From the sequence record LC739536.1: a stretch of 64,000 bases of DNA; one strand, 5' to 3'. Origin of the DNA: Escherichia phage phiWec187. This document shows, one piece after another, positions 4,227-60,486 of the stretch (its first letter is position 1; each line of letters begins with the position of its first letter). The translations under genes were made by a program, and so were the position numbers. The notes below the pieces were generated by a model that was given only the letters and a program-made list of their open reading frames with translations, made no database searches and was not told the DNA's origin.

Positions 4227-5207
4227 ATGGCAAAGCCACAATACTACCCTGACTGGGCGACACAAACAGTAACCCTCCCAGGAACGGGAAACACAAACAA
4301 GATTAGACCAAAAGAAACCATCCGTAATGTTGGTATGGACTTTGGTCAGATTATGACTTGTGAAGAAATGAACTGGATCTTAAACAATATTGGGTCTTGG
4401 ATTCGCTATATGCAAGATGAATTCTTCCCAACATTGCCTACTACATATCTTCCTATAGTCGGTACTAAAATTACAATGGCAGGTGATGCTACAGGTGAAG
4501 TTACATGGAATGGTAATGCTGCTGTAACATTATCTATTCAAGTAGTAGATAACAGTCATAATCACTTATCAGCTAACATTACAGACGCAACATCGAACCA
4601 AGTTGTAGGAAATGTCCTTGTTAAGCGTGATAATGGTGGTGCTATCTATGCAGGTGATATTTACACTTGTGGTACAGGTGCTACAGATCCTGCAACATTA
4701 TTTTTTAGAAACTATAATGGACAAACAGTAGGCAATATGTCTTCTGAACCAGGTGCAGGTGGTCAACTCTATATTTATAGAATAAATCCATCTACTGGAG
4801 GAACATCTTGTGGAGTCCGTTTGTATGATGCAGGTTATGTTTTAATAGACAATCCTCGTTCTAATTCTGGTCAAGATACTGGCAATGGTAATGCTCTTGT
4901 AAGATTAGATTATCTTAACTCAAGACTAAACTCATTGCAAAGTACACTGCAAAATAATATTAACAACGTTAATAGCAACTTGCAAGGCCAAATTAATAAC
5001 ATTAACAATAGAGTTTCTTCTGTTGTGTCTTCTATCCGTCTAGGTACACGTATTAAAGCTGGTGTATCTGAATCTCCTTTCTATGCTGGTCACGTGATCA
5101 CAGGTTGGGGTTTTGGTGATAAGAAAGAACTTCGTGGTGCTTGGTATTGGTCTGCTCCGCTACAATATTACATTAATGGTAGGTGGATAACAGTAACCAA
5201 CGTTTAG
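4227..5207 (+). CDS. tail fibre protein (short fibre)
   Basis: Gly/Thr/Asn-rich beta-type sequence with a C-terminal heptad-like segment (LNSRLNSLQSTLQNNINNVNSNLQGQINNINNRV); RBS AAGGAG upstream. Confidence 0.5.
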   Translation: MAKPQYYPDWATQTVTLPGTGNTNKIRPKETIRNVGMDFGQIMTCEEMNWILNNIGSWIRYMQDEFFPTLPTTYLPIVGTKITMAGDATGEVTWNGNAAVTLSIQVVDNSHNHLSANITDATSNQVVGNVLVKRDNGGAIYAGDIYTCGTGATDPATLFFRNYNGQTVGNMSSEPGAGGQLYIYRINPSTGGTSCGVRLYDAGYVLIDNPRSNSGQDTGNGNALVRLDYLNSRLNSLQSTLQNNINNVNSNLQGQINNINNRVSSVVSSIRLGTRIKAGVSESPFYAGHVITGWGFGDKKELRGAWYWSAPLQYYINGRWITVTNV

Positions 5208-5219
5208 TAAGGAGAACAC

Positions 5220-5771
5220 ATGAAAAAAGATGTTATTTACACTGGCTTTGAACTATATCAACCAGAATTGACAGAAGAAAATGTCATCTATCTTTCAATA
5301 GGTGCTGGTTTTCTTAAAGATAAAGATGGTAATGATTGGTACGAAATTCAGAAATATTTATCCAAAAATTACCCTGATGCCTATTTCTTAACTCTAGATC
5401 ACAACAATGTAGTTGTTGCAGCTACGAAAGATGTTTCTACATATTTTCCCGCTGGTCTTACTGTTCTTGTAACATACAATGTTCCAGATAAAATAGAAGA
5501 AGAAAGCAACCTAGGGTCGTGGAGATATGACAATGGTAAGTTTATTTCTCATAATGGGTTTGCAATAGAAGATGCCAACCTTAAAATGGAAAAAGAATTA
5601 ACTTGGGCCACAAATCAAATATCTGCAATTCAAGATTTAGAGGAATTACAAGGTTTATCTGAAGAACAAAAAGATTGGTTAGGAAAAGTTAAACTCTATC
5701 GTGCAACATTAATTCAAATTAACGTTGAAGATGCACCTAATATAACTTGGCCTACAAGACCTAAGAAATAG
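5220..5771 (+). CDS. tail fibre assembly chaperone (Tfa-like)
   Basis: C-terminal DWLGKVKLYRATLIQINVEDAPNITWPTRP matches the Tfa C-terminal signature (W..YR..L..V......WP..P); directly follows a fibre gene. Confidence 0.6.
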   Translation: MKKDVIYTGFELYQPELTEENVIYLSIGAGFLKDKDGNDWYEIQKYLSKNYPDAYFLTLDHNNVVVAATKDVSTYFPAGLTVLVTYNVPDKIEEESNLGSWRYDNGKFISHNGFAIEDANLKMEKELTWATNQISAIQDLEELQGLSEEQKDWLGKVKLYRATLIQINVEDAPNITWPTRPKK

Positions 5772-5780
5772 GGGCAATGT

Positions 5781-6122
5781 ATGGAGCTAACAGAAGTATG
5801 GGATATCGCTAAAGAGGCGATTATCCCTCTTATTGGCGTAATCTGGGTGGTCTTCAAACAGAAGATAGATGATATGGCAAGTGATTTGGATAAAATGGAA
5901 GACAAATACCGCGAACTAGAAAAGAAGTTGGTGTTTGTTGAATCCACTTATGCTACCAAAGCAGAACTTGCTCAAATGCTTAACCAGATCAACTCTACAT
6001 TAATGGCAAATAATACTGCCTTAGAACAGAAGATTGAAAAAATAATGGATTTAAAAAATGCTCCTGTTCAATTAATGCTAGAGGAGATTACAAAGCGCAC
6101 ACAAAGTAAGGACAAAAATTAA
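5781..6122 (+). CDS. hypothetical protein (N-terminal hydrophobic helix plus coiled coil)
   Basis: 113-aa ORF; IIPLIGVIWVVF hydrophobic stretch then charged helical region; stop overlaps next start. Confidence 0.4.
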   Translation: MELTEVWDIAKEAIIPLIGVIWVVFKQKIDDMASDLDKMEDKYRELEKKLVFVESTYATKAELAQMLNQINSTLMANNTALEQKIEKIMDLKNAPVQLMLEEITKRTQSKDKN

Positions 6123-8536
6123 TGGCGAATTTTCCAACATATCCTGCTACGACACTAGAACAAGGTGTTGATCTGGTTATATTCTCGTCTAACCAGATGC
6201 ATGATGTTATTAATGGGGATGCTACAGCAACTGTAGAAACCGAAACAGGTTTAATACCTACACTGCGTAAAGCACTTGTTGATAACTTCTTCTTTAAGAG
6301 TCCTGTTGCTTGGTCAGCAGGATCAACTGAAACTGTATTTAACCAGTTACGTTATTTTGAAAACGGTATCTTGAGTGGGTACTATTATGCCCCATCTGCC
6401 ACTACTGCGAACCCTGTACCTATGCAGGGCACACCTGTAGGGGACAGTAACTGGACTCTGTACGCTCTTAAAACTGAACAGTTAGCTTCAGATGTGTATC
6501 CTTGGTATTTTAAAGGTGCTACAGGATATGAAACAGAAATCAGTCCTCCTTATATCTTTGATAATGCTATTGTCACCATTAACGGTGTAATTCAGATTCA
6601 AGGTGAAGCATTTACTATCAAAGATAGTAAAATTATTCTGGCAGAACCATTAGGTTTAGATCCGTCTACTGGTCTACCTAACAAATTGTTTGCTTTTATT
6701 GGTAAAACAACAGCTTCTACTTCTTACGTAGAGAAAAACCTTTTGTCATCTACTACTGGTGCAGCAATGGTTGGTCTTCCATCTGGAGGCAACCTGTTAC
6801 AAGCTCAATACTTTGTAACGCCTGAGCAGTTTGGTGCAATTGGTGATGGAGTTACCGATGATACTCAAGCAATTTTAAAAACTATCACTTTCGCTAACAC
6901 GAATAACATTCAAGTACGTGCAGATAAGAATTATAGATTCACAAGCTCAATTGCTATGTCTGGTATTCGTTGGTATGGTGGTACATTCACTGGTAACGGT
7001 GGAACAATGATTTCTACTGTGTCCTGTTGGATGGAAAACGTTCGCTTTGAAAAATGTTATGTTAAGATGTTAGGTGGTGATTGCCGATTCTATCGTAATA
7101 TCTTCTCCAACGCAACATCTACAGCAGCATTCTTAATGCAAGCAATGACAAGTGAAGGTACGTTGGACTTCAGTTACAACGAAATGTATGGTTGTAAATA
7201 TGCGATCCTGCAACAAGGTACTGGAGAAGTAATGACCTACGGGCGTTACTCTAACAACTATATTCACGATATCAAAGGTGATGCTATTGAACTTAACGTA
7301 GTTCAAAAACACTACACTGAAGGTTTGATTATCGAGAATAACCACATTGCTAACGTAGATGCTTCTGGACAAGGTGCAAACTGGGGTATTGGTATTGGTG
7401 TAGCAGGTAGTGGCCCATATGGTGTTGATGTTCCTGATTCACAATATGTACGTAATTTCAGTATCGTTGGGAATAGGGTTTACAATTGCCGTCAATGTTT
7501 ACACGTTGAAATGGGTAAAAACTTCACAATACGTGATAATGAAGTTTATCCTAACACAGCAGTTTCAACAGGTACAGGTTTAACTACTTGTGGTGTTGCA
7601 TTATACGGATGCCAAGATTTTGAAGTTGATGGTTTAACTGGTTATCTGCTCAATGATCCGTCTGTTTCAACACGTATGGTCTTTATTGACTGGGGTGTTA
7701 ACAGTGGAAGATATGCGGGGCCACCAATTAACTTTACAATTAAGAATTTGGATATTCCAGAATCTTCAATTGAGATTGCAACATCTGGATCAGATGCCTG
7801 GGAAAACTCTACAATTGTTAGTAATATCAATTGTAATATTTTTAAATGGCGTGGGCTACCATCTAGCTCTACCTTTAATAATATTCGTTGCCGTAGTATT
7901 GACTTTATTGGTCAACACGGAAGCGGAGAAGGAAGTGGTGGCGGTTTCTATACTCGCAGCCAATTCACGTATATGAAGTGGGTAGGATGTACAGCACTTA
8001 GCGGAGATGAAACAACAGTTTCTTTTGCTAAAATCTACACTGATCGTTGCGATCAGGTTGGAAATAACTTTGGTGTTCCAACTGCTGTTGATGGTACAGG
8101 TCATCGTGGGCCAGTTTTAACTACTATTTCTGAACAATATTTTACAGCTTATGATGAATTCCCAGGTGGGCGTGAATTCCCTACTGGAACAGTTATTCAT
8201 TGTGCAAGCGGTAAAAAACATGTTGTTACAGTAGGTGGTGCTTTCTTTAGTGACAACGAGAAAATAAAAGCAACTGTTACAGGTCAAACCTATCTACAGT
8301 CTAATGCTTTAAACTGGGCTAGTAATGGCTACGCTAAAGCAGCAGGTACTAAGATTGTTATTCCAGGTGCAGGTGCAAATGGCGGCGATCTTGTGACAAC
8401 TATAGCACGTGCTACATATGTGACAAATAGTTTGTACACAATAGATATTGCAGATCCAATTGTAACACCTACAGCAGAGAATACACAAATTAAAGCTCTG
8501 AATCCTGTTACTTTTGTTACTGTCAATAATGCTTAA
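6122..8536 (+). CDS. tailspike with right-handed parallel beta-helix (putative polysaccharide depolymerase)
   Basis: 804 aa; repeated beta-helix-like turns (NNHIANVDASGQGANWGIGIGVAGSG, VGNRVYNCRQCLHVEMGKNFTIRDNEVY); terminator follows. Confidence 0.7.
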   Translation: MANFPTYPATTLEQGVDLVIFSSNQMHDVINGDATATVETETGLIPTLRKALVDNFFFKSPVAWSAGSTETVFNQLRYFENGILSGYYYAPSATTANPVPMQGTPVGDSNWTLYALKTEQLASDVYPWYFKGATGYETEISPPYIFDNAIVTINGVIQIQGEAFTIKDSKIILAEPLGLDPSTGLPNKLFAFIGKTTASTSYVEKNLLSSTTGAAMVGLPSGGNLLQAQYFVTPEQFGAIGDGVTDDTQAILKTITFANTNNIQVRADKNYRFTSSIAMSGIRWYGGTFTGNGGTMISTVSCWMENVRFEKCYVKMLGGDCRFYRNIFSNATSTAAFLMQAMTSEGTLDFSYNEMYGCKYAILQQGTGEVMTYGRYSNNYIHDIKGDAIELNVVQKHYTEGLIIENNHIANVDASGQGANWGIGIGVAGSGPYGVDVPDSQYVRNFSIVGNRVYNCRQCLHVEMGKNFTIRDNEVYPNTAVSTGTGLTTCGVALYGCQDFEVDGLTGYLLNDPSVSTRMVFIDWGVNSGRYAGPPINFTIKNLDIPESSIEIATSGSDAWENSTIVSNINCNIFKWRGLPSSSTFNNIRCRSIDFIGQHGSGEGSGGGFYTRSQFTYMKWVGCTALSGDETTVSFAKIYTDRCDQVGNNFGVPTAVDGTGHRGPVLTTISEQYFTAYDEFPGGREFPTGTVIHCASGKKHVVTVGGAFFSDNEKIKATVTGQTYLQSNALNWASNGYAKAAGTKIVIPGAGANGGDLVTTIARATYVTNSLYTIDIADPIVTPTAENTQIKALNPVTFVTVNNA

Positions 8537-8540
8537 TTAA

Positions 8541-8562
8541 AAAGGGGCGAAAGCCCCTTTAT
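8541..8562 (+). terminator. rho-independent terminator after the tailspike gene
   Basis: aggggc-gaaa-gcccct hairpin followed by TT/A-rich tract. Confidence 0.6.
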
Positions 8563-8577
8563 AAAAGGAGTAGTAAA

Positions 8578-10539
8578 GTGATTTTAACACGTCCAAATAG
8601 TGCCATTGCAGACATGGTAGAGTCTCGCTATAGAAAGCGTAGAAGTTTTGCAAGTGGTTTTACCTTAAGAGATGCTCGTGAAGCATTGCTCTTTGAAACT
8701 GACGGTAACTACTATCAGTGGAAAGGTTCTCTACCTAAAGTTGTACCTGCTAACTCTACTCCTACATCTACTGGAGGGATTTCAGATACAGCTTGGAAAA
8801 ATGTGGGTAATGCAGATGACATTGCTCAAATAGAATCAGAATTAGATGCTATTGAAGCTGAAATTGAAGATCTTAGAGAATCCATTCCAGAGGCTGGTAA
8901 ATCAGCTTACCAGATTGCCGTAGACAATGGTTTCCAAGGTACTGAGACAGAGTGGTTGGCTTCTTTAAAAGGTGATCCAGGTGCTCCATTAAAGCTACTA
9001 GGGACGCTATCTAATACCAACCAATTACCTACAACTGGAAACAATGCAGGGGATGCATGGATTGTAGGCGAGAATATGTATGCTTGGGATGGTACTGCTT
9101 GGAGAAAAGTAAACTCACAGGGGCCAGAAGGTAAATCTGCTTATGAAGTATGGCTTGCAGCAGGAAACGAAGGTACAGAACTAGATTATCTTGCCGCAAT
9201 TAAAGGTGATAAAGGGGAGCCTGGCCCAGAGGGGCCACAAGGTGTGCCAGGTAATAATGCTAATGGTTTTGATTACCAAGGCGCAGCTAATTCCGTTTCA
9301 GATCTTCCTTCTGCATCTCCTGGAAACACATCTCAAGCATGGAGTATTGGTACATATCTATACGTGTCAAACGGTGTAGAATGGATCAATATGGGCGCTA
9401 TAGTGGGGCCAAAAGGAGATAAAGGCGACAAAGGAGATAAGGGTAACACTGGTGATTCAGCTTATCAAGTCTGGTTAAATGCTGGTAACGTTGGTACTAT
9501 TGACGAATATATTGCCTCTCTGAAAGGAGAAAAAGGTGATAAGGGAGACAAGGGTGATCAAGGTGAACAGGGTATACAAGGCTTGACGGGGCCAACTGGT
9601 GCAGGGTTGACCATTATTGACATTCTGACTAGCACTTCTGAACTACCACAAACTGGAGAAGATGGCGATGGTTATCTGATCAATAATGAACTTTGGGTCT
9701 GGTTGCAAGGAGCCACAGAGTGGACAAATGTTGGTCGTTTAGCTGGTACTCCAATCACTGCAAAAGGACACGTTGCGTCTGCAAGTGCACTTCCTCCTAC
9801 AGCCAATTACGGTGATGCTTATCTGACGGAAGATACAGGTCATCTTTACATTTACACCTATGATGAACAAACTCAAACTGCTGAATATGTAGATATGGGT
9901 AGTTTGAAAGGTGATAAGGGTGAAAAAGGTGACGCTGGTACTAACGGTACAGACGGTGCAACTTGGATTGTTAAAACAACAGATCCAATCTCTAGTGATG
10001 GTAAACAAGGTGATTATGCCTTTAATATCTCCACTGGCGAGGTGTTCTTAAAAACATCTGCAACTATCTGGACTTCTCAAGGTACACTACCTAGTATCAC
10101 AGATGCACCTAGTGATGGTAAGACTTATGCTCGTAAAGATGGAGCATGGGAAGAACTCACTAATTCTGTAGATGGTCAAGATATAGTTCCAACAAAAGTA
10201 ACAACTAATTTTATAGAGGTTACAGCATATACTAACAATTCTGTTACAGGGGACTGGACACCTCCAGGAACACATAACATGAATGTGTTGAATCTTACTG
10301 GTAACTCTACTATAAAAGCATGGCCTGGTGTCGAAGATAGCACAAAACCTAAACCATTCTCTGCAATAGTTTATCTTATCCAAGATGCCACTGGAGGTCG
10401 TACTGTTACTTTAGATCCATCTTACAAAGTAATTGGTTCCAGTGATATTAATACAGATCCTAACGGAGTAACAATACTACAACTAACATATTGTGGTGTT
10501 GGCGATTACGTGGATGCTATTGTTGCTAAACGCACATAA
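8578..10539 (+). CDS. tail fibre with collagen-like G-X-Y repeats and phage fibre repeats
   Basis: GDKGEPGPEGPQGVPG, GPKGDKGDKGDKGNTGDS, GEKGDKGDKGDQGEQGIQGLTGPTG; three copies of the SAYQVWL..G..GT..EY.ASLKG unit; GTG start after AAAAGGAG. Confidence 0.75.
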   Translation: MILTRPNSAIADMVESRYRKRRSFASGFTLRDAREALLFETDGNYYQWKGSLPKVVPANSTPTSTGGISDTAWKNVGNADDIAQIESELDAIEAEIEDLRESIPEAGKSAYQIAVDNGFQGTETEWLASLKGDPGAPLKLLGTLSNTNQLPTTGNNAGDAWIVGENMYAWDGTAWRKVNSQGPEGKSAYEVWLAAGNEGTELDYLAAIKGDKGEPGPEGPQGVPGNNANGFDYQGAANSVSDLPSASPGNTSQAWSIGTYLYVSNGVEWINMGAIVGPKGDKGDKGDKGNTGDSAYQVWLNAGNVGTIDEYIASLKGEKGDKGDKGDQGEQGIQGLTGPTGAGLTIIDILTSTSELPQTGEDGDGYLINNELWVWLQGATEWTNVGRLAGTPITAKGHVASASALPPTANYGDAYLTEDTGHLYIYTYDEQTQTAEYVDMGSLKGDKGEKGDAGTNGTDGATWIVKTTDPISSDGKQGDYAFNISTGEVFLKTSATIWTSQGTLPSITDAPSDGKTYARKDGAWEELTNSVDGQDIVPTKVTTNFIEVTAYTNNSVTGDWTPPGTHNMNVLNLTGNSTIKAWPGVEDSTKPKPFSAIVYLIQDATGGRTVTLDPSYKVIGSSDINTDPNGVTILQLTYCGVGDYVDAIVAKRT

Positions 10540-44333: not shown

Positions 44334-47108
44334 TTAGTTTACCAGTTTATTTATGTCTGGTAAAAGATTTATTTCACCTAAGAAATCACCTTCACCTTCC
44401 TCTAGCCAACTCTCATATGCTTGTGCATGATTATAGTTACCATCAAAAGAATCTGCAACAAATTTTTCTACAGTTTTTCGAGATGTGTCAGCGCCAAATA
44501 CACCAAGTTTAATACCATTGATAGGTAAAGTGGTGCTTGTGGGTACTTTCTCTGTTGCAACACGGTTGATATCTATAATCTCCTGTACGGTTGTGTTCCA
44601 TTGTAAGCATTTAACACAACGGGTGTGCGCTACATACAGTAGGTTTCGCTCTGCCTCTTCTAGTCCTACCCATTCACCAGTCTTTTTATCATAATTGGAA
44701 GGAAAATCATTAGCAACAATAACCTGATCCCACTCCAAACCTTTAGATTTGTGTGCTGTAGTCAATGTGACTTTTGCTGTAGGAGAATTTCTATGCGTTC
44801 TAAGTGTATGTGCTATAGTGTTTGCCTTACCAGAAACTACAATGTTTAACAAACGTTTAGCATCTGGATCAGCCTCTGCACACTCAACAAATTCATCCCA
44901 GTCTGCATAAGGTAATACAGTTTCATGTTTTACTTTCTCAATATCTCCTCTCCGAAGAGCATTAACACTATCTACCATAGAGATAAAATCCCTGGTATCT
45001 ACGTTAATAATAATTTCTTCCCCGTCTGCAATACGATCCATTGCCTCCATAAGCAAGGTTAAATTCTTGCGAAAGATGATAGTGTAAGGTTTTGTATAGT
45101 CTACAACATCTGATTTGTAGCTACCTACTACAGTATCAAAGCCTTTACCAACCAAAGGATGACGCAAAGGTTCTTTATCGCTTAAAATCATATTGGCAAT
45201 GTTTGCCACTTTGGGGCCAAAACGGAAGCAAGCAGTTAATGGAAGTTCTGCCCCATACTTAGCTGTTTCAATCATCATATTAGAGCTACCTCTAAATTGA
45301 TAAATGCAGTTGTGGCTAAGAATTTCATTGCCAAAGAAGTTAGCAGTATCCTCTACTTCAATATCATAATAGATACCCTCACTATCTACAATGTCCACAA
45401 TCTCTTCTGCCGTTACAGTATCACCATCTTTTACCAACACAGACATGCCTTTAAACAAACCCGCTGCCGGAATTAAGTTATATTTGGCACTGTTCACAGA
45501 GGACATGCATTCTTTTAAAGATGCAAACGGAACTATTTCAAGGATCTTTTGTGCAAAACTCAATGCTTCACGATAAGAATTGAAATATTTACGTACACGG
45601 TAACGACCTTCCAATTTAGCAGCACTTACGCTTACACCTGCTTTAATCAGTGAAGAATAGATCGGCATTTCACTTTCTGTCCACTCAAAACTAACTTGTG
45701 TTCCTTTACAACCTTGTGCTCGCAAAGTCACTGTTAGCATTTTTCTTTCATCTACTGCACAATTGATGCTGTGCCAGTGTGGATAAGCAAAATGATAATC
45801 TTTATCCTCTAAAAGTTTAAAACCATTTTGTCCGAATTGTTCAAAGATGTTATTGATCTTTTCTTGATTAATGCCGCGTGAACTTGCTTCAAATACACAA
45901 GTAGGCATGCCATATTGTAAACTGTAAGCCATTTCTTTTTCCATAGCAGCTTCACGGTTTTCAACAATATCCAACACCCATAATTTCTGTGCTTTTTCAG
46001 AACGTGTACGTTGCCCCAGTTTAGAAAAACCTTCTTTATCATCGAATTTGTTAGTGATCCCTACTCGGAAACCTAAATCTTTCCTCCACATTAGGTATAC
46101 CACCATCTGATCATCTTTCAGAACATAGGATGAAGCCCAAATACGATGGTTATGTGTCATATCTAAAGTTTTACCTGTGGCAGTAATAATATTCCTACCT
46201 TTTGTACGTGTAGATAAAGTCTTATTTGTTACTTTTCTAAATGTAATTTTACCATTAGAATAAGACTCTACCTTATCACCGATTTGTAGGTCTTTCATTG
46301 TAACCTGACCATTCTCGGTATTAAGTACCGTGTTTTCCGACACACATTGGAATTCATCGCCCACTACCACAATTTGTTTTGCAGATTTAGCATTTCGCAG
46401 AATAGACAAGAATGCAGGGTTAACATCCTGGAATTCATCACCAAAAATAATGTCATAACCAAGATCAGCACCTGATAATTCAAACAATTTTACATAGGTG
46501 TCATGCGTCATCAAAGTATCTGTGTTAGGATCGATGCGCTCTCGCCACAATTGTTTTGCATACTTAACCACTTCTGTAATTAGTTTATGTTCGTTAATAC
46601 CTTTTCTTTTAATATCTGCAAGATGTACACCAGGAAAATGTTTACGGCTGATAAAAGGATCATCCGAAAATTCAAACTTACCTACGGTTTGTTTGATCAT
46701 TAAACCAATCATAGCACGAGTTAACAGTGTTTTCCCTCGTTTATCAATAAGATTATTAATCTTAAATTTCTTTGCTATCTCGCTACCTGTACCTGCAACG
46801 TTAACATACTGTCCTTCTGGTCGTGACAGTTTTGCACGTAAACGATGATCCAGGAATTGATAGCAAATAGAATGCAATGTACGGCATTCTACATTTAGTG
46901 GCATCTTACGTCGTGCTTCTTCTGCCATGCTTTTATTGAAAGCTAAGTAAAGAATGCGATCTTCTGTACTGTTAGCCAGCAAATAAAGTGTTGACGTTTT
47001 GCCTGATCCAGATTTAGCTTGGATAGTTAAAAAGCGATGGTCTGGAAAAGCCTCCTTAATAGCTGTTTGCTCTTCTGTTGGAGTGAAGCTCAACTCTTTC
47101 TTAGCCAT
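44334..47108 (-). CDS. SF1 (UvrD/Dda-like) DNA helicase interrupted by an intein
   Basis: Walker A AKSGSGKT; motif II IIFGDEFQD; motif III VVVGDEFQ|CIYQFRGSS split by a 346-aa insert; start set at ATG 47108 (MAKKEL). Confidence 0.75.
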   Translation of the reverse strand: MAKKELSFTPTEEQTAIKEAFPDHRFLTIQAKSGSGKTSTLYLLANSTEDRILYLAFNKSMAEEARRKMPLNVECRTLHSICYQFLDHRLRAKLSRPEGQYVNVAGTGSEIAKKFKINNLIDKRGKTLLTRAMIGLMIKQTVGKFEFSDDPFISRKHFPGVHLADIKRKGINEHKLITEVVKYAKQLWRERIDPNTDTLMTHDTYVKLFELSGADLGYDIIFGDEFQDVNPAFLSILRNAKSAKQIVVVGDEFQCVSENTVLNTENGQVTMKDLQIGDKVESYSNGKITFRKVTNKTLSTRTKGRNIITATGKTLDMTHNHRIWASSYVLKDDQMVVYLMWRKDLGFRVGITNKFDDKEGFSKLGQRTRSEKAQKLWVLDIVENREAAMEKEMAYSLQYGMPTCVFEASSRGINQEKINNIFEQFGQNGFKLLEDKDYHFAYPHWHSINCAVDERKMLTVTLRAQGCKGTQVSFEWTESEMPIYSSLIKAGVSVSAAKLEGRYRVRKYFNSYREALSFAQKILEIVPFASLKECMSSVNSAKYNLIPAAGLFKGMSVLVKDGDTVTAEEIVDIVDSEGIYYDIEVEDTANFFGNEILSHNCIYQFRGSSNMMIETAKYGAELPLTACFRFGPKVANIANMILSDKEPLRHPLVGKGFDTVVGSYKSDVVDYTKPYTIIFRKNLTLLMEAMDRIADGEEIIINVDTRDFISMVDSVNALRRGDIEKVKHETVLPYADWDEFVECAEADPDAKRLLNIVVSGKANTIAHTLRTHRNSPTAKVTLTTAHKSKGLEWDQVIVANDFPSNYDKKTGEWVGLEEAERNLLYVAHTRCVKCLQWNTTVQEIIDINRVATEKVPTSTTLPINGIKLGVFGADTSRKTVEKFVADSFDGNYNHAQAYESWLEEGEGDFLGEINLLPDINKLVN
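45309..46346 (-). mobile_element. intein in helicase motif III
   Basis: Starts CVSENTVL (block A), ends ...EILSHN followed by Cys; 346 aa implies an embedded endonuclease of unclear type. Confidence 0.7.
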
Positions 47109-47109
47109 T

Positions 47110-47586
47110 TCAACCTCTCTTAATTTGTTTAACAAGCATAGGAACAAAATCTCGTTTTAAAATTTGTTCAATAATATGATCAGGTAGCTGTTGGAAATTA
47201 TAATTAAAAGCTACTGTCTCACCTTTAGGTGTTTCTACCCGCACATATAACATGTTACGAAGTTTATCCACTTGTGCTGTGTATTCTAAACCATGTAATT
47301 GATGTAATGCAAACATCAAATCATCAGTTTCAGTTTGGAATCTATCCCTTCCCTGCATCAAGGACAAGGAAAAAGGTAGATTTTCCCTAAGAGCCACCTT
47401 CTTAGGCACTAGTGAAGGGAAATACTCCCCAATAACTTCCTGTGTAAGCTGAATACACTCTTTTTCAAGCTGGTTTTGTTCCTTGAGTTCACAAACACTC
47501 TTTTGTAAAGTGTTAACCTCTTTTTGCAAAGCTGCTAGTTGAGCACTTAACTTTCTTTTTTGATTACGACCAAAACGTTTAGACAT
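47110..47586 (-). CDS. hypothetical protein
   Basis: 158-aa ORF; stop 1 nt before the helicase start. Confidence 0.4.
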   Translation of the reverse strand: MSKRFGRNQKRKLSAQLAALQKEVNTLQKSVCELKEQNQLEKECIQLTQEVIGEYFPSLVPKKVALRENLPFSLSLMQGRDRFQTETDDLMFALHQLHGLEYTAQVDKLRNMLYVRVETPKGETVAFNYNFQQLPDHIIEQILKRDFVPMLVKQIKRG

Positions 47587-52951: not shown

Positions 52952-52983
52952 TAATGCATACACAAATGAGAGGAGATAAACGA

Positions 52984-54445: not shown

Positions 54446-55573
54446 ATGAAATACACGATTTATGGTGATATTGTAAGTGTAAATAAAGATATGGGCGTGG
54501 AATCTAACTATCTTCCACCTGGATTCTATACTGTTAGTCGTGATCCCCTTGGCAATTATTTTTTAAGCCGTGGTAATCTGACAGGTGTACCGGATGTTCT
54601 GTATGGTGAAACAGAAAAACGAGCAAATCACGTTATCCGTACATTCCATCGCCGGAGTGCACAAGGTAAAAACACAGGCTTGCTTCTGACAGGAACTAAG
54701 GGCAGTGGTAAAACTATGTTAGCCAAACTCATTAGTCGTGACCTTGTAGAAGAAGGTATTCCAACTATTATGGTTACTCAAGCCTACAGTGATGCTAATT
54801 TCATTGAACTTATTAGCAAGATCACCGACAAAGCAGTGATTATTTTTGACGAGTTTGATAAAGTGTATGAGAAGAAACAAGATCAAGAAGCACTTCTCAC
54901 TTTGTTAGATGGTACTGGCAGTGGTAATAAACTGTTTATTCTGACTAAAAACAGTGGTTTTATTTCTGAATTCTTTTTAAATCGTCCTAGTCGTGTGTTT
55001 TATAATTTTAATTATGATAAAATCTCACTAGAAACTATGATTGACTATTTAGATAAAAACCTAGATAACAAAGCACACTTTGATAATTTCCAAAGACTTT
55101 GGGATGTAAGTTTAGAGTTGTCCTTTGATGTGATCCAAGGTATAGTAGAAGAACTTAATTTCTACCCTGATTTATCCTTTAAAGAATGCATCTCTATGAT
55201 GGGCGTTTCTTTGGGTGGTGGTAATAAGTGGGATATCAGCAGCGTTGTTATTAATGGGAAACTTCAGAAAGTTAGCTGGGTATCTAGTTGGCATAACTTC
55301 ACACCTGCAATCTTTTTAGGTGGTTCGTGCACACTGGACGTGTACTTGTCATCTCCAAGTGATGCAGATTCTAAAGAAGCCCTTGCTAATAGCTCTTACG
55401 TGGTTTTTGATGATGAAGGCGATGCTCGAATTCCATTGAATGCGACAAAAATGAAAGCAGATCTTATTACAGGCGGTAAAATCGTTGTGTTTAGTGATGA
55501 TCCAGAAGATTCTTTCCGTATTGTTCTGGAACCAACTATCACCAATGGTGCAACTTTGGCAAGTGTGTTTTAA
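54446..55573 (+). CDS. P-loop ATPase, paralog 2
   Basis: Walker A GTKGSGKT, Walker B IIFDEFDK; homologous throughout to 37782-38942; terminator follows. Confidence 0.6.
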   Translation: MKYTIYGDIVSVNKDMGVESNYLPPGFYTVSRDPLGNYFLSRGNLTGVPDVLYGETEKRANHVIRTFHRRSAQGKNTGLLLTGTKGSGKTMLAKLISRDLVEEGIPTIMVTQAYSDANFIELISKITDKAVIIFDEFDKVYEKKQDQEALLTLLDGTGSGNKLFILTKNSGFISEFFLNRPSRVFYNFNYDKISLETMIDYLDKNLDNKAHFDNFQRLWDVSLELSFDVIQGIVEELNFYPDLSFKECISMMGVSLGGGNKWDISSVVINGKLQKVSWVSSWHNFTPAIFLGGSCTLDVYLSSPSDADSKEALANSSYVVFDDEGDARIPLNATKMKADLITGGKIVVFSDDPEDSFRIVLEPTITNGATLASVF

Positions 55574-55587
55574 GTAAGCCAGCAAAT

Positions 55588-55612
55588 AAAAACCCGCTCC
55601 GGCGGGTTTTCT
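55588..55612 (+). terminator. rho-independent terminator
   Basis: aacccgc-tccg-gcgggtt followed by tttc. Confidence 0.6.
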
Positions 55613-55647
55613 TGTATTGATGCCAGATTTAATAAAAGGAGTAGTAG

Positions 55648-56637
55648 ATGGCAGCACCAAAATCATGGGAACAATATAAAGAAGAGTGTATACCAATAGC
55701 AGAGAGTAAGCAAATCCAAATCTTAGGATGGACGGGACAATGGAAAGGGGTCCACACAAAACTTGATTTGTTGTGCCATTGTGGTTATAAATGGGATACT
55801 ACAAGTATTAACAGTTTTAAATGTGGTAGCGGTTGTCCACAATGTAGGAGGAAGAATATAAGGAAGTCACAAACAATGTCCGACGATCAACATATTGCAG
55901 ATTTCTTTTCTACAGGGAAATTTAAGGAAGGCACTATCTTCACTAACACAGGAACACGGGGTAAAGGATGTAGGAATATTATCTGGATGGTTGAATGTCC
56001 TGTTTGCTCTCATGATGAATATGTTCAAGCAGGTGTTTGTGATGGTAAATTTTACTCTGAAGGAGATAACCTTAAACGAGGGTATATTCCGTGTCGTTGT
56101 GGGAACTATCGGTATACAGAAGACCAGATCACCTATAGGGTAAAAAAGGAAGTAGAAGGGAAAGGGTATGTCTGGGTAGATTGGATTACCAAACCCTCTT
56201 CTATAGGTAAGTTTAAATATCTTTGTCTTGTGCATGGGGAGCAGATAGGGAGTGCTCATAATTTATTAAGCCTCGGTCGAGGTTGTCCTATGTGTGCTGG
56301 TCATAGTCAGCAGCAGTTATATATTAATATTGTTAAGGATGATAATATTATAGTTGCTCTTAAGTTTGGTATAGCTAAAGATAGTGATAGACGATTAAAA
56401 ATTCAAAATAGCCGTAATATGTTTCCTATGGAGCGTATTTGTTTATATGATTTTAGCACAGTAAAACAATGTAAGGCTGCTGAAAGAGCTATAAAGAAAA
56501 AATTAAAAACTGGTATTTTAACGGAAAGAGAGTTGAAAGACGGTTATACAGAAACAGTAAGTGTTTCTGATTTGGAAAATCTTCAAAAAATTATTACACA
56601 ATATGGTGGCAAATTAGTATACAGTAAGGAGATGTAA
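55648..56637 (+). CDS. zinc-ribbon-rich protein, possible nuclease
   Basis: Repeated CxxC pairs (CGSGCPQC, CPVCSH, CRCGNY, GRGCPMC); C-terminal YINIV...KFGIAKD is weakly GIY-YIG-like. Confidence 0.35.
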   Translation: MAAPKSWEQYKEECIPIAESKQIQILGWTGQWKGVHTKLDLLCHCGYKWDTTSINSFKCGSGCPQCRRKNIRKSQTMSDDQHIADFFSTGKFKEGTIFTNTGTRGKGCRNIIWMVECPVCSHDEYVQAGVCDGKFYSEGDNLKRGYIPCRCGNYRYTEDQITYRVKKEVEGKGYVWVDWITKPSSIGKFKYLCLVHGEQIGSAHNLLSLGRGCPMCAGHSQQQLYINIVKDDNIIVALKFGIAKDSDRRLKIQNSRNMFPMERICLYDFSTVKQCKAAERAIKKKLKTGILTERELKDGYTETVSVSDLENLQKIITQYGGKLVYSKEM

Positions 56638-57189
56638 ATGCGGATTACTGATAAGTATGTGTTCTTCTTTTCAGCAAAAGATGAATTTAGCAACTGGTAT
56701 CTATCATCTTTTATTGAACCTTTAGCACCCAAGTATAATAATTCTATTACAAGTTCTGTTGAATTTACTTGTGTGGAACAATATATGATGTGGAGAAAAG
56801 CATGTTTGTTTTATGATTACAGTATTGCATCTTCTATTTTAACCGGAGATCTAAGATATACAGGAGAAAAAGAACAAGCATATTATAAGCGACTAGGCAG
56901 ATTAGTTAAAGATTATGATGAAGATACCTGGACTTCTTTACGGGAGAAGATTGTCAAACGTGGTTTGTATCTTAAATACACACAAAATGAAGATCTCAAA
57001 AATAAACTTATAGCTTACGCAGATAAGGAGTTTGTAGAGGCAAGTCCTTATGATTCTATTTATGGTATCAAAATGGGGATGTGGGATCGGGACGTGGAAA
57101 ATAAGGATTGTTGGAAAGGACAAAATCTTTTAGGAAAATGGCATACAGACCTTGCTGTTTATCTAAAAGCCCACTCTGATATTTCCTGA
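56638..57189 (+). CDS. NADAR-domain protein (YbiA-like)
   Basis: FFFS...FSNW, EQYMMWRKA, EASPYDSIYGIKMG and GQNLLGK blocks match the NADAR/YbiA pattern. Confidence 0.6.
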   Translation: MRITDKYVFFFSAKDEFSNWYLSSFIEPLAPKYNNSITSSVEFTCVEQYMMWRKACLFYDYSIASSILTGDLRYTGEKEQAYYKRLGRLVKDYDEDTWTSLREKIVKRGLYLKYTQNEDLKNKLIAYADKEFVEASPYDSIYGIKMGMWDRDVENKDCWKGQNLLGKWHTDLAVYLKAHSDIS

Positions 57190-57405
57190 TATTTTGAAAA
57201 TTTTTATTTTTATAAAAAGGGGTGTGGGTTTCATGTACGGAAATTCACCCTCTGAATAATATATTCAGAGTAAATATTATTTTGTACTCTGTTAATAAAC
57301 TATTTAATTTGTTTGTTGGATTATGATATCTGGTTTTTAAAAGGCATACTATCTCTTAACTACTATTTATAACAGAACAGTAAAATCATTTTTATAAAAA
57401 GGACA

Positions 57406-57610
57406 AAATTATTTAAAGTTTTTACAGATTTTTGGATACAAATTTTGAAAATGAAAAGTTCAAGTTTGGTCAAAATTATTTAAAGTTTTTGTATGTATTT
57501 CTATCCAGATTTTGAAAATGAAAACTTCAATTTTTTAAAAATTCCCCAGTTTATTTAAAGTTTTTTTGCCTTTTTCCGTAGAAAAATCAAAAATGAAAAG
57601 TTCAATTTCG
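57406..57610. repeat. three tandem ~65-75-bp direct repeats
   Basis: Each unit carries tatttaaagttttt then, about 20 nt later, tttgaaaatgaaaagttcaa. Confidence 0.7.
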
Positions 57611-57629
57611 TGTTTTTATAGGTGTGCGT

Positions 57630-57745
57630 ATGATAATCATTCTCATTTGTAAATGAGAATGATTATCATTTAATTATGTAAGTGATAATCATTCTCACTA
57701 AGAGAATGAGAATCATTAGCAAATGAGAATTTTTCTCATTTATAG
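57630..57745. promoter_or_regulatory. cluster of Fur-box-like palindromes
   Basis: Perfect 19-bp inverted repeat atgataatcattctcattt / aaatgagaatgattatcat (57630-57669) containing AATGATAATCATT, an exact 13-nt match to the core of the E. coli Fur box GATAATGATAATCATTATC; two more partial copies to 57745. Confidence 0.5.
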
Positions 57746-58001
57746 AATAACGCGCAGGGGTGGTGTTTGTCTCGCGCTCCCGTGTCCCCTCGCCATACAA
57801 TAAGAATAGCATAACTAACAACAAAAGCAAGCAATTATTTTTATCTTTACATTTCTTTACAAATTTATTTTAGACGAGCTACCGGCGATCAACCTTCCAA
57901 CCAGTGCCCCCTGGTATGTTAGCCCCGCCTTTACGCCGTGGGGTGGCGTTTCCTCTTCTGTATGTAAAACAGTATAAGCCCGATCCCTGGGCTTGTCAAG
58001 A

Positions 58002-58268
58002 TTATTTTTTGTTTTCTTGCCAGGATAGGACACCTAACCAAAAATACATGTCGCCCCGCGCCCCTGGCGGGATCTTGCTTTCCCCGCCGCCACTGCAAGC
58101 CCATAGATAACCATTAGCGAACGGATCAAAGTGATCTATTTCTTCCACCTTATGATCGCCCAGGTTGAGAACGGTTTCAACCTTTAAGCCCGTTGCGCTT
58201 GCTACCTGGTGCGCCGTGCCGCCTTGCCAGCCTAATGAGTGCATGAGGTGTAGAGTAGTATTTGTCAT
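58002..58268 (-). CDS. hypothetical small protein encoded in a GC-rich island
   Basis: 88-aa ORF with its own promoter and 5' hairpin-RBS architecture (gcgcc-ctggtt-ggcgc, then caaagaaaggg...ATG); GC content far above the flanks. Confidence 0.45.
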   Translation of the reverse strand: MTNTTLHLMHSLGWQGGTAHQVASATGLKVETVLNLGDHKVEEIDHFDPFANGYLWACSGGGESKIPPGARGDMYFWLGVLSWQENKK

Positions 58269-58315
58269 GGTATCGCCCTTTCTTTGATGTGCGCCCTGGT
58301 TGGCGCGGTAGAAAG

Positions 58316-58344
58316 ATAATAGCCCTTTCCTTTATAGATAGCAA
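58316..58344 (-). promoter_or_regulatory. sigma70-like promoter for the 58268 gene
   Basis: Minus-strand TTGCTA, 17-nt spacer, TATTAT. Confidence 0.45.
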
Positions 58345-58380
58345 GCAAAAAAAAGAAATGAAAAAAGATTAAAAAAGGGG

Positions 58381-58409
58381 TTGACGTTCCTCACCTGGTA
58401 GCGTATTAT
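58381..58409 (+). promoter_or_regulatory. sigma70-like promoter (divergent partner)
   Basis: TTGACG, 17-nt spacer, TATTAT. Confidence 0.5.
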
Positions 58410-58536
58410 TCATCTTGTCGAGGGGGGCGAGGCACAACGACAATAAACAAAAGGAGGGCGCAATGTAGGACGGGCAAAGGTGAGGATCTCCATAATCCAC
58501 CGTCACAATAACATTACTTATAAAAGGTTGATAACG

Positions 58537-58632
58537 ATGATCAAGAAAGAAAACAGCTTGACGGTTGGAACGATTAACGCTATCATTCTTGCCGTTCCAT
58601 TTTGGATTGTAGTTGCGGTTATTATTTTTTAA
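58537..58632 (+). CDS. small hydrophobic peptide (31 aa)
   Basis: MIKKENSLTVGTINAIILAVPFWIVVAVIIF; below the ORF-track length cutoff; weak RBS. Confidence 0.3.
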   Translation: MIKKENSLTVGTINAIILAVPFWIVVAVIIF

Positions 58633-58640
58633 AAATATTC

Positions 58641-58668
58641 TTGACAACGTTTTTTAATCTGATAAGAT
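58641..58668 (+). promoter_or_regulatory. early promoter
   Basis: TTGACA, 16-nt spacer, TAAGAT; followed by the 58681-58696 hairpin. Confidence 0.6.
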
Positions 58669-58720
58669 GTATCACATAGGGCGGCAATAGTGCCGCTCAT
58701 AACAGAAGAGAGAAATAATC

Positions 58721-58993
58721 ATGGCATCATATAGCGCATCAATGATCGTAATGGGCATCACTGGTAAACCTATGCGCGGTGGCGGATCTTTCGCTAACAT
58801 CAATATTGATGGGCGTTTATCCCTGGATGCAGCGATCACCGTGGCACGGGAAACATTTAAAAAAGAATGCAATTTCAATAAACAAGATTATCTCGGTTTC
58901 GCTATTGAAAAAACCGCGCGCTTTGTGGATTATAAAAGCCCGAAAATGATCGACACTACACTAAAAGCGCAAGATGTAGCGTTTTTGCTTTAA
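58721..58993 (+). CDS. early protein, hypothetical
   Basis: 90-aa ORF with promoter, 5' stem-loop and RBS. Confidence 0.5.
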   Translation: MASYSASMIVMGITGKPMRGGGSFANINIDGRLSLDAAITVARETFKKECNFNKQDYLGFAIEKTARFVDYKSPKMIDTTLKAQDVAFLL

Positions 58994-58996
58994 GGC

Positions 58997-59024
58997 TTGA
59001 CACTGAAAAATAATTTAGTAATAT
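58997..59024 (+). promoter_or_regulatory. early promoter
   Basis: TTGACA, 16-nt spacer, TAATAT; hairpin ggcgggg...cccgcc at 59036-59057. Confidence 0.6.
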
Positions 59025-59079
59025 ATACCACGTAAGGCGGGGAAATGATTTCCCGCCAAATCAAAGAAAGGGTAATGCA

Positions 59080-59442
59080 ATGAGCAAGCAAATCAATACT
59101 ATCATGTTTAATCTGGTATCTTTCCGCGATGACGTGAAAAACCTTTCGCGTGATGCAGTGGATGCACGGATCGAAAGCTATCGCACACAGATCGCAACGT
59201 TACCGCTGAAACGTGATCAACATGCCGCTAATATGATGCTTGATGCTATGATTAAAAAGATGATTCAATGTGATCTTACCCTGGCTTATGAATATGCTGG
59301 CGATCTTTTTGTAACGTATAATAAGCCCGTTCCAGGTATGAGCACCACGGAAGAATTGCATGCCTTAAATCTGCGACAAGATGCATGGGATAACATGCGC
59401 CGTGTTATGGTATGGGTAGAAAGCGGTAAAATTTACGAATAA
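59080..59442 (+). CDS. early protein, hypothetical
   Basis: 120-aa ORF with promoter/hairpin/RBS. Confidence 0.5.
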   Translation: MSKQINTIMFNLVSFRDDVKNLSRDAVDARIESYRTQIATLPLKRDQHAANMMLDAMIKKMIQCDLTLAYEYAGDLFVTYNKPVPGMSTTEELHALNLRQDAWDNMRRVMVWVESGKIYE

Positions 59443-59448
59443 AAACGG

Positions 59449-59476
59449 TTGACATTGCACTAAAACCTGATAAGCT
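59449..59476 (+). promoter_or_regulatory. early promoter
   Basis: TTGACA, 16-nt spacer, TAAGCT; hairpin gcgggaa-ttg-ttcccgc at 59485-59501. Confidence 0.55.
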
Positions 59477-59520
59477 ATCTTAAAGCGGGAATTGTTCCCG
59501 CTTACATAGGATAAAACTTT

Positions 59521-59667
59521 ATGAAACAATATGTAATGAGTATTCACACCAAAAACGGCGCTACTGTTACGACTCCGGCACGGTTTGCACTTGTAAACCG
59601 CTGCAAGAGACTAAAACGAGAGCTAAAAAACAACCGTGCAACGGGCTTTAAACGCTGGGGAGGATAA
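59521..59667 (+). CDS. early small basic protein (48 aa)
   Basis: MKQYVMSIHTKNGATVTTPARFALVNRCKRLKRELKNNRATGFKRWGG; below the ORF-track cutoff. Confidence 0.4.
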   Translation: MKQYVMSIHTKNGATVTTPARFALVNRCKRLKRELKNNRATGFKRWGG

Positions 59668-59669
59668 TC

Positions 59670-59930
59670 TTGTTTTTTCTAAAAGTTTTTGATAATGTGA
59701 TCGCTTTTGAACATGCTACAACGTTCGACCTGGCGAGATACGCTATCAGGTTTAAAGATAATGTTTATCCCCGTGCTGGCGGCGGTTACACTATTTTTAA
59801 TCATCGTAACGCTCAATTAACGGATATAACTAATCCAGGCCCTGGAGTGTATCGCATAGGCTGGCTACCGTCAAAAGACGCGGCAAGCATGTTTAAGGTA
59901 TGTAAACTACTAACAGAAGAGGCGAACTAA
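59670..59930 (+). CDS. early protein, hypothetical (TTG start)
   Basis: 86-aa ORF starting at TTG 8 nt after GGGGAGG, translationally coupled to the preceding small ORF. Confidence 0.4.
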   Translation: MFFLKVFDNVIAFEHATTFDLARYAIRFKDNVYPRAGGGYTIFNHRNAQLTDITNPGPGVYRIGWLPSKDAASMFKVCKLLTEEAN

Positions 59931-59931
59931 C

Positions 59932-60486
59932 ATGGGGCGTGAATATGTGATCCAGTCCTGGGTAAAGCATGATGCTAATGATCCGCGCATAATACCAGAT
60001 GACATGATCGATCACATGGTAGGGTATAGCGGGGAGCAGATAGGAAATCGAGCGGCAAAGAGCAACGGCAACACAAAGGCGCGATCCGTTCGCCCTGGTT
60101 GGCTGGCAAATGGTAACGCTGACATTGCAAGCGCCGCAGATCCAAGCGATGACGCTAAAAATAATCCCTTATACAGCATTGATCCGGCTTTTAAGGTGTT
60201 AGAAGAATATCCCGCTAAATTAGCCGCACTAGATAAGGCATACGAAGAAAAGCGCATGGCATGGACTGTATACAACACCGCTAAAATGGTGCTAGATGCA
60301 AAATTGATTAAAGCCCAGGAGAAGATCAATAAACTTGTTGCAGTAGCGCAAGAGGAAGACCAGGACGACCAGGAGGAAGAGGAAGAAATCATGCCTACCC
60401 TGGAAGAGGAAGAGATCCAGCCATACACGCCGACAGAAGAGGAAAAAATACAAGCCTTAAAAAATTATAAAAATTGTATTGTGTAA
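59932..60486 (+). CDS. early protein with highly acidic C-terminus
   Basis: 184 aa; EEDQDDQEEEEEIMPTLEEEEIQ tail. Confidence 0.45.
   Translation: MGREYVIQSWVKHDANDPRIIPDDMIDHMVGYSGEQIGNRAAKSNGNTKARSVRPGWLANGNADIASAADPSDDAKNNPLYSIDPAFKVLEEYPAKLAALDKAYEEKRMAWTVYNTAKMVLDAKLIKAQEKINKLVAVAQEEDQDDQEEEEEIMPTLEEEEIQPYTPTEEEKIQALKNYKNCIV

Follow-up and report, generated by a model that had tools for sequence, protein, structure and literature searches.

Why would a virulent coliphage carry, in a gap between its genes, a row of palindromes that read like operators of Fur, the master iron sensor of enterobacteria? The question is raised by positions 57628-57741 of a 64,000-nucleotide (nt) stretch of Escherichia phage phiWec187 DNA (LC739536.1; the whole stretch is referred to here as the window). 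The source is a phi92-like myovirus of E. coli (Justusliebigvirus, Stephanstirmvirinae), and the palindromes sit inside a gap of about 1.5 kb (57190-58720) whose sole open reading frame (ORF) is a small minus-strand gene. An initial annotation, made from the sequence alone, described a perfect 19-bp inverted repeat containing an exact 13-nt match to the center of the Fur consensus, followed by two further partial copies. It offered two readings: clustered high-affinity Fur sites that could link phage expression to host iron status or titrate Fur, or operators for a phage regulator.

Sequence identity of the five dyads

The inverted repeat is as described (arms at 57630-57648 and 57651-57669, 100% complementary, with 2 nt between them), and the window contains a single copy of the 13-mer AATGATAATCATT (57658-57670, minus strand), compared with 0.01 occurrences expected from shuffles. 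The number of copies has to be corrected: three more units follow the inverted repeat, giving five 21-bp dyads (none assigned to a strand) in 57628-57741 that share the form AAATGA(G/T)AATnATT(C/A)TCATTT. U1 (57628-57648; GTATGATAATCATTCTCATTT) is the left arm of the inverted repeat, and U2 (57651-57671; AAATGAGAATGATTATCATTT) is the right arm and carries the 13-mer. They are followed by U3 (57680-57700; AAGTGATAATCATTCTCACTA), U4 (57704-57724; GAATGAGAATCATTAGCAAAT), and U5, the proximal box (57721-57741; AAATGAGAATTTTTCTCATTT). Each unit matches the 7-1-7 core TGATAATnATTATCA with 1 to 3 mismatches (1 in U1 to U3, 2 in U4). At up to 2 mismatches, this core is found 7 times in 64 kb (0.89 expected), and 4 of the 7 matches lie inside 91 bp of the array. 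The 19-bp consensus GATAATGATAATCATTATC at up to 3 mismatches has two matches in the window (0.02 expected), one of which is at U4: the 19-mer at 57702-57720 (GAGAATGAGAATCATTAGC) overlaps this unit and shares 16 of 19 positions with the classical consensus. The consensus forms used here (i.e., the 19-mer, the 7-1-7 core, and the hexamer model) are reportedly those of de Lorenzo 1987, Escolar 1999, and Baichoo and Helmann 2002.

We compared phage and host sites with two matrices, and both of these reciprocal tests are independent of any remembered consensus. The phage matrix (symmetrized, 21 bp) was built from 22 copies taken from phage DNA only (i.e., the window, anhysbys, KP13-16, RaK2, and a T5-like phage). 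It scores U1 to U5 at 28.7, 34.7, 23.8, 20.8, and 28.5 bits, and only one match of at least 20 bits is found elsewhere in the 64 kb. An isolated Fur-box-like site (AAATGATAATCTTTATCCTCT; 45790-45810; 21.5 bits) lies within a 940-amino-acid (aa) minus-strand ORF (44337-47156) and is probably incidental. When this matrix was scanned over four 50-kb pieces of E. coli MG1655 (200 kb), 10 of the 12 best matches were in promoter gaps of known Fur-regulated genes: fecI (23.8 bits), ryhB (23.0 bits, with a second site of 10.6 bits), fhuA (18.7 bits), fecA (18.4 bits), entC (15.5 bits), fepA/fes (14.0 bits), fepD/entS (12.3 bits), fepB (10.8 bits), and feoA (10.5 bits). The two exceptions are in the map-rpsB gap (position 189580 of the MG1655 piece; 19.9 bits, and 15.8 bits with the host-only matrix described below) and in the yadN-folK gap (157123; 12.3 bits). 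These scores are on par with those of accepted Fur operators; to our knowledge, neither site is at a classical Fur-regulated promoter.

The host-only matrix was derived from eight host Fur promoter gaps by an unsupervised, palindrome-constrained site sampler with zero phage input, which converged on AATGATAATCATTATCATT. Over the whole window, the five units rank 1, 2, 3, 4, and 6 with this matrix (24.0, 22.0, 16.9, 16.8, and 15.4 bits), U2 being the top match at 24.0 bits, followed by U1 at 22.0 bits, while U4 scores 16.8 bits and U3 scores 15.4 bits. The best score in mononucleotide shuffles of the window averages 14.4 bits. Leave-one-out scores of the host operators range from 7 to 20.8 bits, compared with 15.4 to 24.0 bits for the phage boxes; thus, the phage boxes are at least equal to the best host operators. 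In the 200 kb of E. coli DNA, 9 of the 10 host-only matches of at least 14 bits are at Fur promoters. The matrix scan for which the initial annotation had called therefore finds phage and host sites indistinguishable in both directions. These comparisons support the identification of the array units as Fur boxes, and we predict that Fur very probably binds them. It is also probable, if slightly less so, that the array is under selection for this binding.

Any such binder appears to be supplied by the host. A tblastn search of 50,697 phage records, with the Fur protein of E. coli as the query, returned 31 matches, none of them in rV5-like, T5-like, or RaK2-like phages, so any Fur-family protein that binds the boxes in these phage groups is that of the host.

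Conservation and recurrence of the array

Over the array region, the window is 97 to 99% identical to vB_Eco_PATM, phi92, and alia. Every rV5-like lineage examined (Stephanstirmvirinae and Vequintavirinae) carries 1 to 5 boxes, usually 29 bp apart from start to start. There are five in phi92, four each in alia and anhysbys (Phapecoctavirus), and three in Klebsiella phage KP13-16; the Vequintavirinae have two (Mydovirus BIS47 and Seunavirus 4MG), four (Certrevirus CR3 and phiTE), or one (Seunavirus SSE121 and Avunavirus Av-05). The array is also present in several IMG/VR relatives of these phages, and the hosts of array-bearing rV5-like lineages include E. coli, Klebsiella, Cronobacter, Pectobacterium, and Salmonella. 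The box nearest a conserved core of about 95 nt (U5 in the window) is retained throughout, and its distance from the core motif is 186 to 199 nt at 25 of the 27 loci. Column identity over nine lineages is 0.92 in this proximal box and 0.91 in the 95-nt core, compared with 0.64 to 0.74 in the sequence between them. By this comparative measure, the boxes are shown to be under purifying selection. Only in Justusliebigvirus do U1 and U2 form the long perfect hairpin; in the other lineages, the boxes are separate and 29 bp apart. Extra Fur boxes were seen in other noncoding gaps of Mydovirus, at locus positions 10119 and 10846 in BIS47 and 9986 and 12202 in a second genome (L025). They lie 7.5 to 10 kb to the right of the main array, and the window has no equivalent strong site in 58 to 64 kb.

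The same boxes recur in other phages. Klebsiella jumbo phage RaK2 has one five-box cluster and three single boxes, and it independently has two modules composed of a sigma70 promoter, a G-rich leader of 50 to 60 nt, and a Fur box. In T5 (NC_005859), five to six boxes (18 to 35 bits) are found at 9551-9710, within the annotated injection-stop signal. A LexA box (tactgtataaatatacagta; approximately 9408-9427), the known DnaA boxes (9440-9520), and the Fur boxes of T5 all fall within 350 bp (9400-9750), and this segment resembles a docking region for three DNA-binding proteins of the host. The shear point calculated for first-step transfer, 9618 in the coordinates of a different T5 record (AY587007), is close to the position of the Fur boxes. 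A preprint on T5 (Davison, bioRxiv 10.1101/866236) lists these elements, citing Heusterspreute 1987, as palindromes and DRC repeats without a known role, does not mention Fur, and describes the injection-stop palindromes as unresolved for about 50 years.

Scanning IMG/VR with the exact box pattern gave 118 loci among the matches listed, to which all IMG/VR figures given here refer; 51 of these loci have at least two boxes and 16 have at least three boxes inside 250 bp. Across lineages, the number of boxes varies from 1 to 7. Two of the IMG/VR contigs (L153 and L174) have no matching isolated phage, and a third (L210) matches other sequences at the array only. With ORFs called crudely, the median gap that bears an array is 962 bp long, compared with 123 bp for all gaps in the same loci, and 9 of 29 array-bearing gaps are divergent, compared with 10% overall; the arrays are often beside other repeat families. 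A degenerate pattern (TTTAC...TCTTTACRAA) was also tried on IMG/VR and returned mostly chance AT-rich matches, being useful only for several RaK2 copies. Targeted searches of a literature library found no paper that connects virulent coliphages, or the injection-stop signal of T5, with Fur boxes. The Fur box itself is a known cis-element, and what appears to be new is that several phage lineages use it in their lytic control regions as a conserved array.

Three explanations would make the likeness to Fur operators incidental. The units might be operators for a phage-encoded DNA-binding protein whose specificity resembles that of Fur by coincidence, as the initial annotation had allowed; dyad repeats within an early control region are typical of phage operators, and several small, unassigned early proteins are encoded nearby. 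However, the motif is common to phage groups that are otherwise dissimilar in these regions, it agrees with an independently derived host consensus, and the records of these groups hold no Fur-family homolog, all of which makes this explanation very unlikely. RNA hairpins acting as terminators or processing sites are a still weaker candidate. A scan does mark U1/U2 as a terminator-like 18-pair stem followed by TTAATTATGT, and the array is placed where transcription units converge; yet the stems consist largely of A and T and are not followed by a proper U tract, a long perfect hairpin is restricted to one lineage, and the reciprocal match with host Fur promoters would be left unexplained. There is also no compensatory change between the two halves: the variable positions 7 (G/T) and 15 (C/A) are complementary in 84 of 171 distinct boxes, and mixed G/T boxes (78 of 171) are near the number expected for independent halves, a pattern that fits a degenerate protein-recognition position and not a conserved stem. 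Chance AT-rich repeats without a selected function are hardly credible either, even in DNA that is very AT-rich, as Fur boxes themselves are, given matches far above those in shuffles, the near absence of other strong matches from the 64 kb, and the conservation of the proximal box over two subfamilies. Of the two readings offered by the initial annotation, that of clustered strong Fur boxes is thus favored by the reciprocal matrices, the fixed position, and the recurrence in unrelated enterobacterial phages, while that of phage-regulator operators is disfavored.

Leftward promoters and possible roles of Fur

Two tandem promoter-like sites point leftward toward the array in essentially every lineage (programmatic scan of 20 distinct loci), with conserved hexamers and variable spacers. 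In the window, PL1 (57971-57999, minus strand) is a strong sigma70-type promoter (TTGACA-17-TATACT; 11 of 12 positions) with a hairpin (57976-57994) in its spacer. PL2 (57803-57830, minus strand) is a weak sigma70-type site (TTGCTT-16-TATTCT; 7 of 12), for which TTGTAA-17-AATAAT (57862-57834, minus strand) is an alternative. In Vequintavirinae and KP13-16, the PL2 hexamers are TTGCAA or TTGATC and TATATT or TATTAT, separated by 16 to 17 nt (9 of 12). The PL1 start site is 209 to 226 nt from the proximal box, and that of PL2 is 53 to 56 nt from it (Vequintavirinae and KP13-16); the array thus occupies about +55 to +225 downstream of the leftward promoters. Three rightward sigma70-type promoters (58381-58409, 58558-58586, and 58641-58668, plus strand) precede small genes and form, with PL1 and PL2, a divergent promoter region. 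Because sigma70-type promoters precede these small genes, the gap is taken to be an early control region of the phage.

This layout suggests that host Fur-Fe2+ bound to the array gates leftward early noncoding transcription, a reading to which we assign a probability of roughly 0.5. PL1 and PL2 would fire noncoding transcripts directly into the array. In an iron-replete cell, Fur-Fe2+ would occupy the array and, at roughly +55 to +225, form a protein barrier (a roadblock or insulator) that ends the transcripts before they reach the AT-rich repeats farther left and enter the upstream operon in antisense. In an iron-starved cell, Fur would leave the DNA and allow read-through, and the control region would thereby respond to iron. 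Repressor roadblocks to RNA polymerase are known for PurR at purB, LacI, CodY, and CcpA, and in these a tight dimeric repressor stands tens to hundreds of base pairs past the start site, a geometry like that of the array. We know of no established case of Fur acting as a roadblock in E. coli. That control of this type is the main role of the array is a tentative proposal, somewhat short of even odds; we rank it above a pure titration of Fur because some lineages have a single, precisely placed box and because RaK2 shows the promoter-leader-box geometry.

Several observations weigh against the gating of leftward transcription by Fur. No good promoter overlaps the boxes in the window at its -35 or -10 hexamer, as would be usual for a Fur box, and PL2 is weaker or displaced in Justusliebigvirus. 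There is no leftward gene past the array, and the gain from gated read-through is therefore hard to see. A plain terminator would insulate equally well, so the use of Fur needs a reason, and the good growth of these phages in iron-replete laboratory media implies that anything Fur would block is nonessential under such conditions. In T5, no promoter close by is aimed at the array, and a terminator follows it; one mechanism may not cover all phages. A conventional promoter that reads rightward across the proximal box and is repressed by Fur (TTGAAT-18-nAGAAT, preceded by an A/T tract) was considered and rejected: its -35 hexamer is absent in the window, and in Vequintavirinae the critical second -10 position is G or T in three of nine lineages. 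It is plausible, as a minor possibility, in Av-05 and SSE121.

Two other roles for bound Fur are serious alternatives to transcriptional gating, and the three are not mutually exclusive. Replicating phage genomes may titrate host Fur, so that a derepressed iron-uptake and iron-sparing regulon (e.g., siderophores, RyhB, and NrdEF) aids iron-demanding processes such as nucleotide reduction. Such a sponge would suit boxes as strong as the best host operators or stronger, and box numbers that range widely via tandem duplication, as dosage tuning would give. Multicopy Fur boxes are reportedly able to titrate Fur in vivo, a principle on which the FURTA assay is said to rest (Stojiljkovic et al., 1994); FURTA resembles the phage array in presenting many strong boxes per cell, but it is a laboratory artifact of plasmid copy number. 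Arrays in long gaps might be stably occupied if these gaps were transcriptionally quiet, whereas in the window PL1 and PL2 are predicted to fire into the array. A cell contains roughly 5,000 to 10,000 Fur monomers, and five sites per genome could matter only late in infection. SSE121 and Av-05 hold one box only, always at the same position, and T5 is described in its annotation and in the literature as degrading host DNA early, so that derepression of the host would gain it little. On balance, titration as the primary role is unlikely.

Alternatively, Fur could serve as a structural protein, comparable to IHF, DnaA, or Fis, in genome entry and pausing or in replication initiation. This is suggested by the T5 array, which lies inside the injection-stop signal with DnaA boxes and a LexA box of consensus sequence as neighbors, by the three iteron-like repeats and the stretch of 22% GC that adjoin the window array, into which the promoters would fire, and by the IMG/VR arrays in long gaps near other repeat families. 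The T5 signal shares with the window the 21-bp motif and a long, untranslated, repeat-rich region conserved among relatives, but its array is in the terminal repeat and is tied to two-step DNA transfer. In the window, nothing places a genome end at the array; a scan of the gap for DnaA, LexA, CRP, FNR, TyrR, and Zur-like sites found none, and the lone match to the IHF pattern (58521) is away from the array. We know of no two-step injection among rV5-like phages, and T5 replication origins are reported near the genome center. No initiator-like gene is adjacent (the neighbors encode an AAA ATPase, a homing-endonuclease-like protein, a NADAR protein, and proteins without an assigned function). 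The local minimum of cumulative GC skew is at 52,963, where gene orientation flips, and not at the array; an origin placed by GC skew was thus rejected, as the switch is 5 kb off and tracks gene orientation. A genome terminus at this locus was likewise rejected: a few GenBank records start or end within 2 kb, approximately the chance number as estimated from match tables. With these points taken together, an architectural role appears quite unlikely for the window.

Comparison with known Fur sites helps to define what is unusual about the array. The phage boxes have the same recognition sequence as E. coli Fur operators (fecI, ryhB, fhuA, fepA-fes, fepB-entC, and the multisite iucA/aerobactin operator), and adjacent multiple sites are found at strongly regulated host promoters as they are in the phage array. 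Unlike these operators, the window array is in a virulent genome, downstream of the putative promoters of noncoding transcripts, and clear of -35 and -10 hexamers, and phage arrays contain up to five to seven near-consensus sites in a regular 29-bp phase with no iron gene near. The stx1 gene on Shiga-toxin prophages has a phage-borne Fur box. Temperate lambdoid coliphages carry a Fur box upstream of sitABCD (PMC6969025). Both cases link phage sequence to the host Fur regulon, as is proposed for the window array, but they are single classical operators before iron-related cargo that is expressed from a prophage, whereas the array is conserved in the lytic control region of virulent phages and has no cargo gene.

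More broadly, consensus Fur-box arrays may form a widespread host-factor module of virulent phages, used for iron sensing or for Fur as a structural protein, although we advance this generalization only tentatively. It would cover rV5-like phages, the T5 injection-stop signal, RaK2-like jumbo phages, and several uncultivated lineages, and the recurrence of arrays across them suggests that lytic phages may read or exploit host iron status. If so, the T5 injection-stop palindromes would be Fur sites, which gives a concrete and testable candidate for these elements. Host tissues and the gut are iron limited, while laboratory media are not, and phage development would then differ between iron-replete laboratory media and iron-limited infection sites. 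The expression, timing, or yield of rV5-like, phi92-like, and T5-like phages, which are often proposed for phage therapy, would hang on a variable that standard assays ignore. With DnaA and LexA boxes added at the T5 locus, the broader question is whether virulent phages routinely bear sites for host global regulators.

Neighboring elements and genes

Several conserved elements lie between the array and PL1. Element 1 (57745-57796, minus strand) is GC-rich and begins with an invariant GAAT (57745-57748). On the minus strand, its ATGGCG...CGTTAT segments can pair to close a stem at the start of the predicted PL2 transcript. In the alignment, 94.4% of the cells pair, compared with 90.4 ± 1.8% in shuffled alignments (13 of 500 shuffles reach 94.4%) and 31 to 53% with slid partners. 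Two pairs vary at both partners, and several others are G-U, which on the opposite strand would read C-A. This stem is suggestive only as support for a leftward PL2 transcript. A duplicated TCTTTACA motif (TCTTTACAnnTCTTTACAAA; 57844-57863, no strand assigned) is directly upstream of the PL2 -35 hexamer and has a column identity of 0.93; in RaK2, a TTTACAAATCTTTACAAA motif is found just upstream of a -35 hexamer. The duplicated motif TTTACAnnTCTTTACAAA is invariant in rV5-like phages, and its RaK2 copies (1745-1765, 2738-2757, and 2972-2990) stand just upstream of several sigma70-type promoters; its role may be that of an upstream promoter element or of a host-factor site.

The ultraconserved core (57875-57968, minus strand; approximately 95 nt, GC-rich) is just downstream of PL1 and is 83 to 88% identical across the two subfamilies, exceeding the flanking DNA. 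Several identities for it were tried and rejected. As a structured RNA, it is no more stable than shuffled sequences on either strand (minimum free energy z-scores of 0.23 and -0.40), and RNAalifold found a single clean compensatory pair on either strand. A hidden protein gene is at odds with lineage-specific insertions and deletions that are not multiples of three and with the loss of the ATG in most lineages, and a search of 5,426 E. coli genomes gave no match that would indicate a host-derived sequence. An Rfam scan of 55000-60000 (E ≤ 1) returned just two subthreshold chance matches, and ARAGORN found no tRNA or tmRNA. A Fur-regulated small RNA (i.e., RyhB-like) or an Rfam family was also rejected, given the lack of an Rfam match and the location of the boxes away from PL1 and PL2.

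Immediately to the left of the array, three AT-rich, iteron-like direct repeats (57388-57608, plus strand; 22% GC) are spaced by 67 and 75 bp, each of the form ATTTAAAGTTTTT ... TTTTGAAAATGAAAAGTTCAA. They are confined to this spot of the window and are poorly conserved outside Stephanstirmvirinae; alia has an annotated repeat_region at this place. Related motifs (ATTTAAAGTTT and TTTTGAAAAT) were found in anhysbys, KP13-16, and RaK2.

The small ORF of the gap (58002-58268, minus strand) is upstream of PL1 on the same strand and is homologous to phi92 gp224 (88 aa; phrog_19316, E = 1.7e-58); a Pfam search assigned it to no family. The phi92 and alia annotations of the gap comprise only two alia repeat_region features and the minus-strand ORF gp224, and nothing functional. 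To the left of the gap, rightward genes encode an AAA ATPase, a T5orf172/CapR endonuclease-like protein, and a NADAR protein; to its right is a series of small rightward genes without an assigned function. Domain and PHROG searches of the neighbors revealed no iron-related gene near the array. CapR and T5orf172 domains were identified in the ORF at 55648-56637, which lies upstream of the NADAR gene and also matches an endonuclease PHROG. The phi92 and alia counterparts measure 396 aa and 465 aa, respectively, and the window ORF differs in length from both; it resembles a homing-endonuclease-type gene that is mobile or in decay.

Two sets of database records deserve mention. MG065639.1 and MG065689.1 ("Campylobacter phage A150" and "A110a"; stated host, Campylobacter jejuni) are 96.7% identical to this region and share the genome size of Justusliebigvirus, and their assignment to a Campylobacter host looks doubtful. 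A 71-nt segment that includes the first rightward promoter (58350-58420) is 95.8% identical to positions 943-1013 of Enterococcus phage heks (MT119359.1), where it is annotated within the cytidine deaminase gene of a 39.7-kb phage; this cross-phylum match possibly reflects a chimeric or contaminated record.

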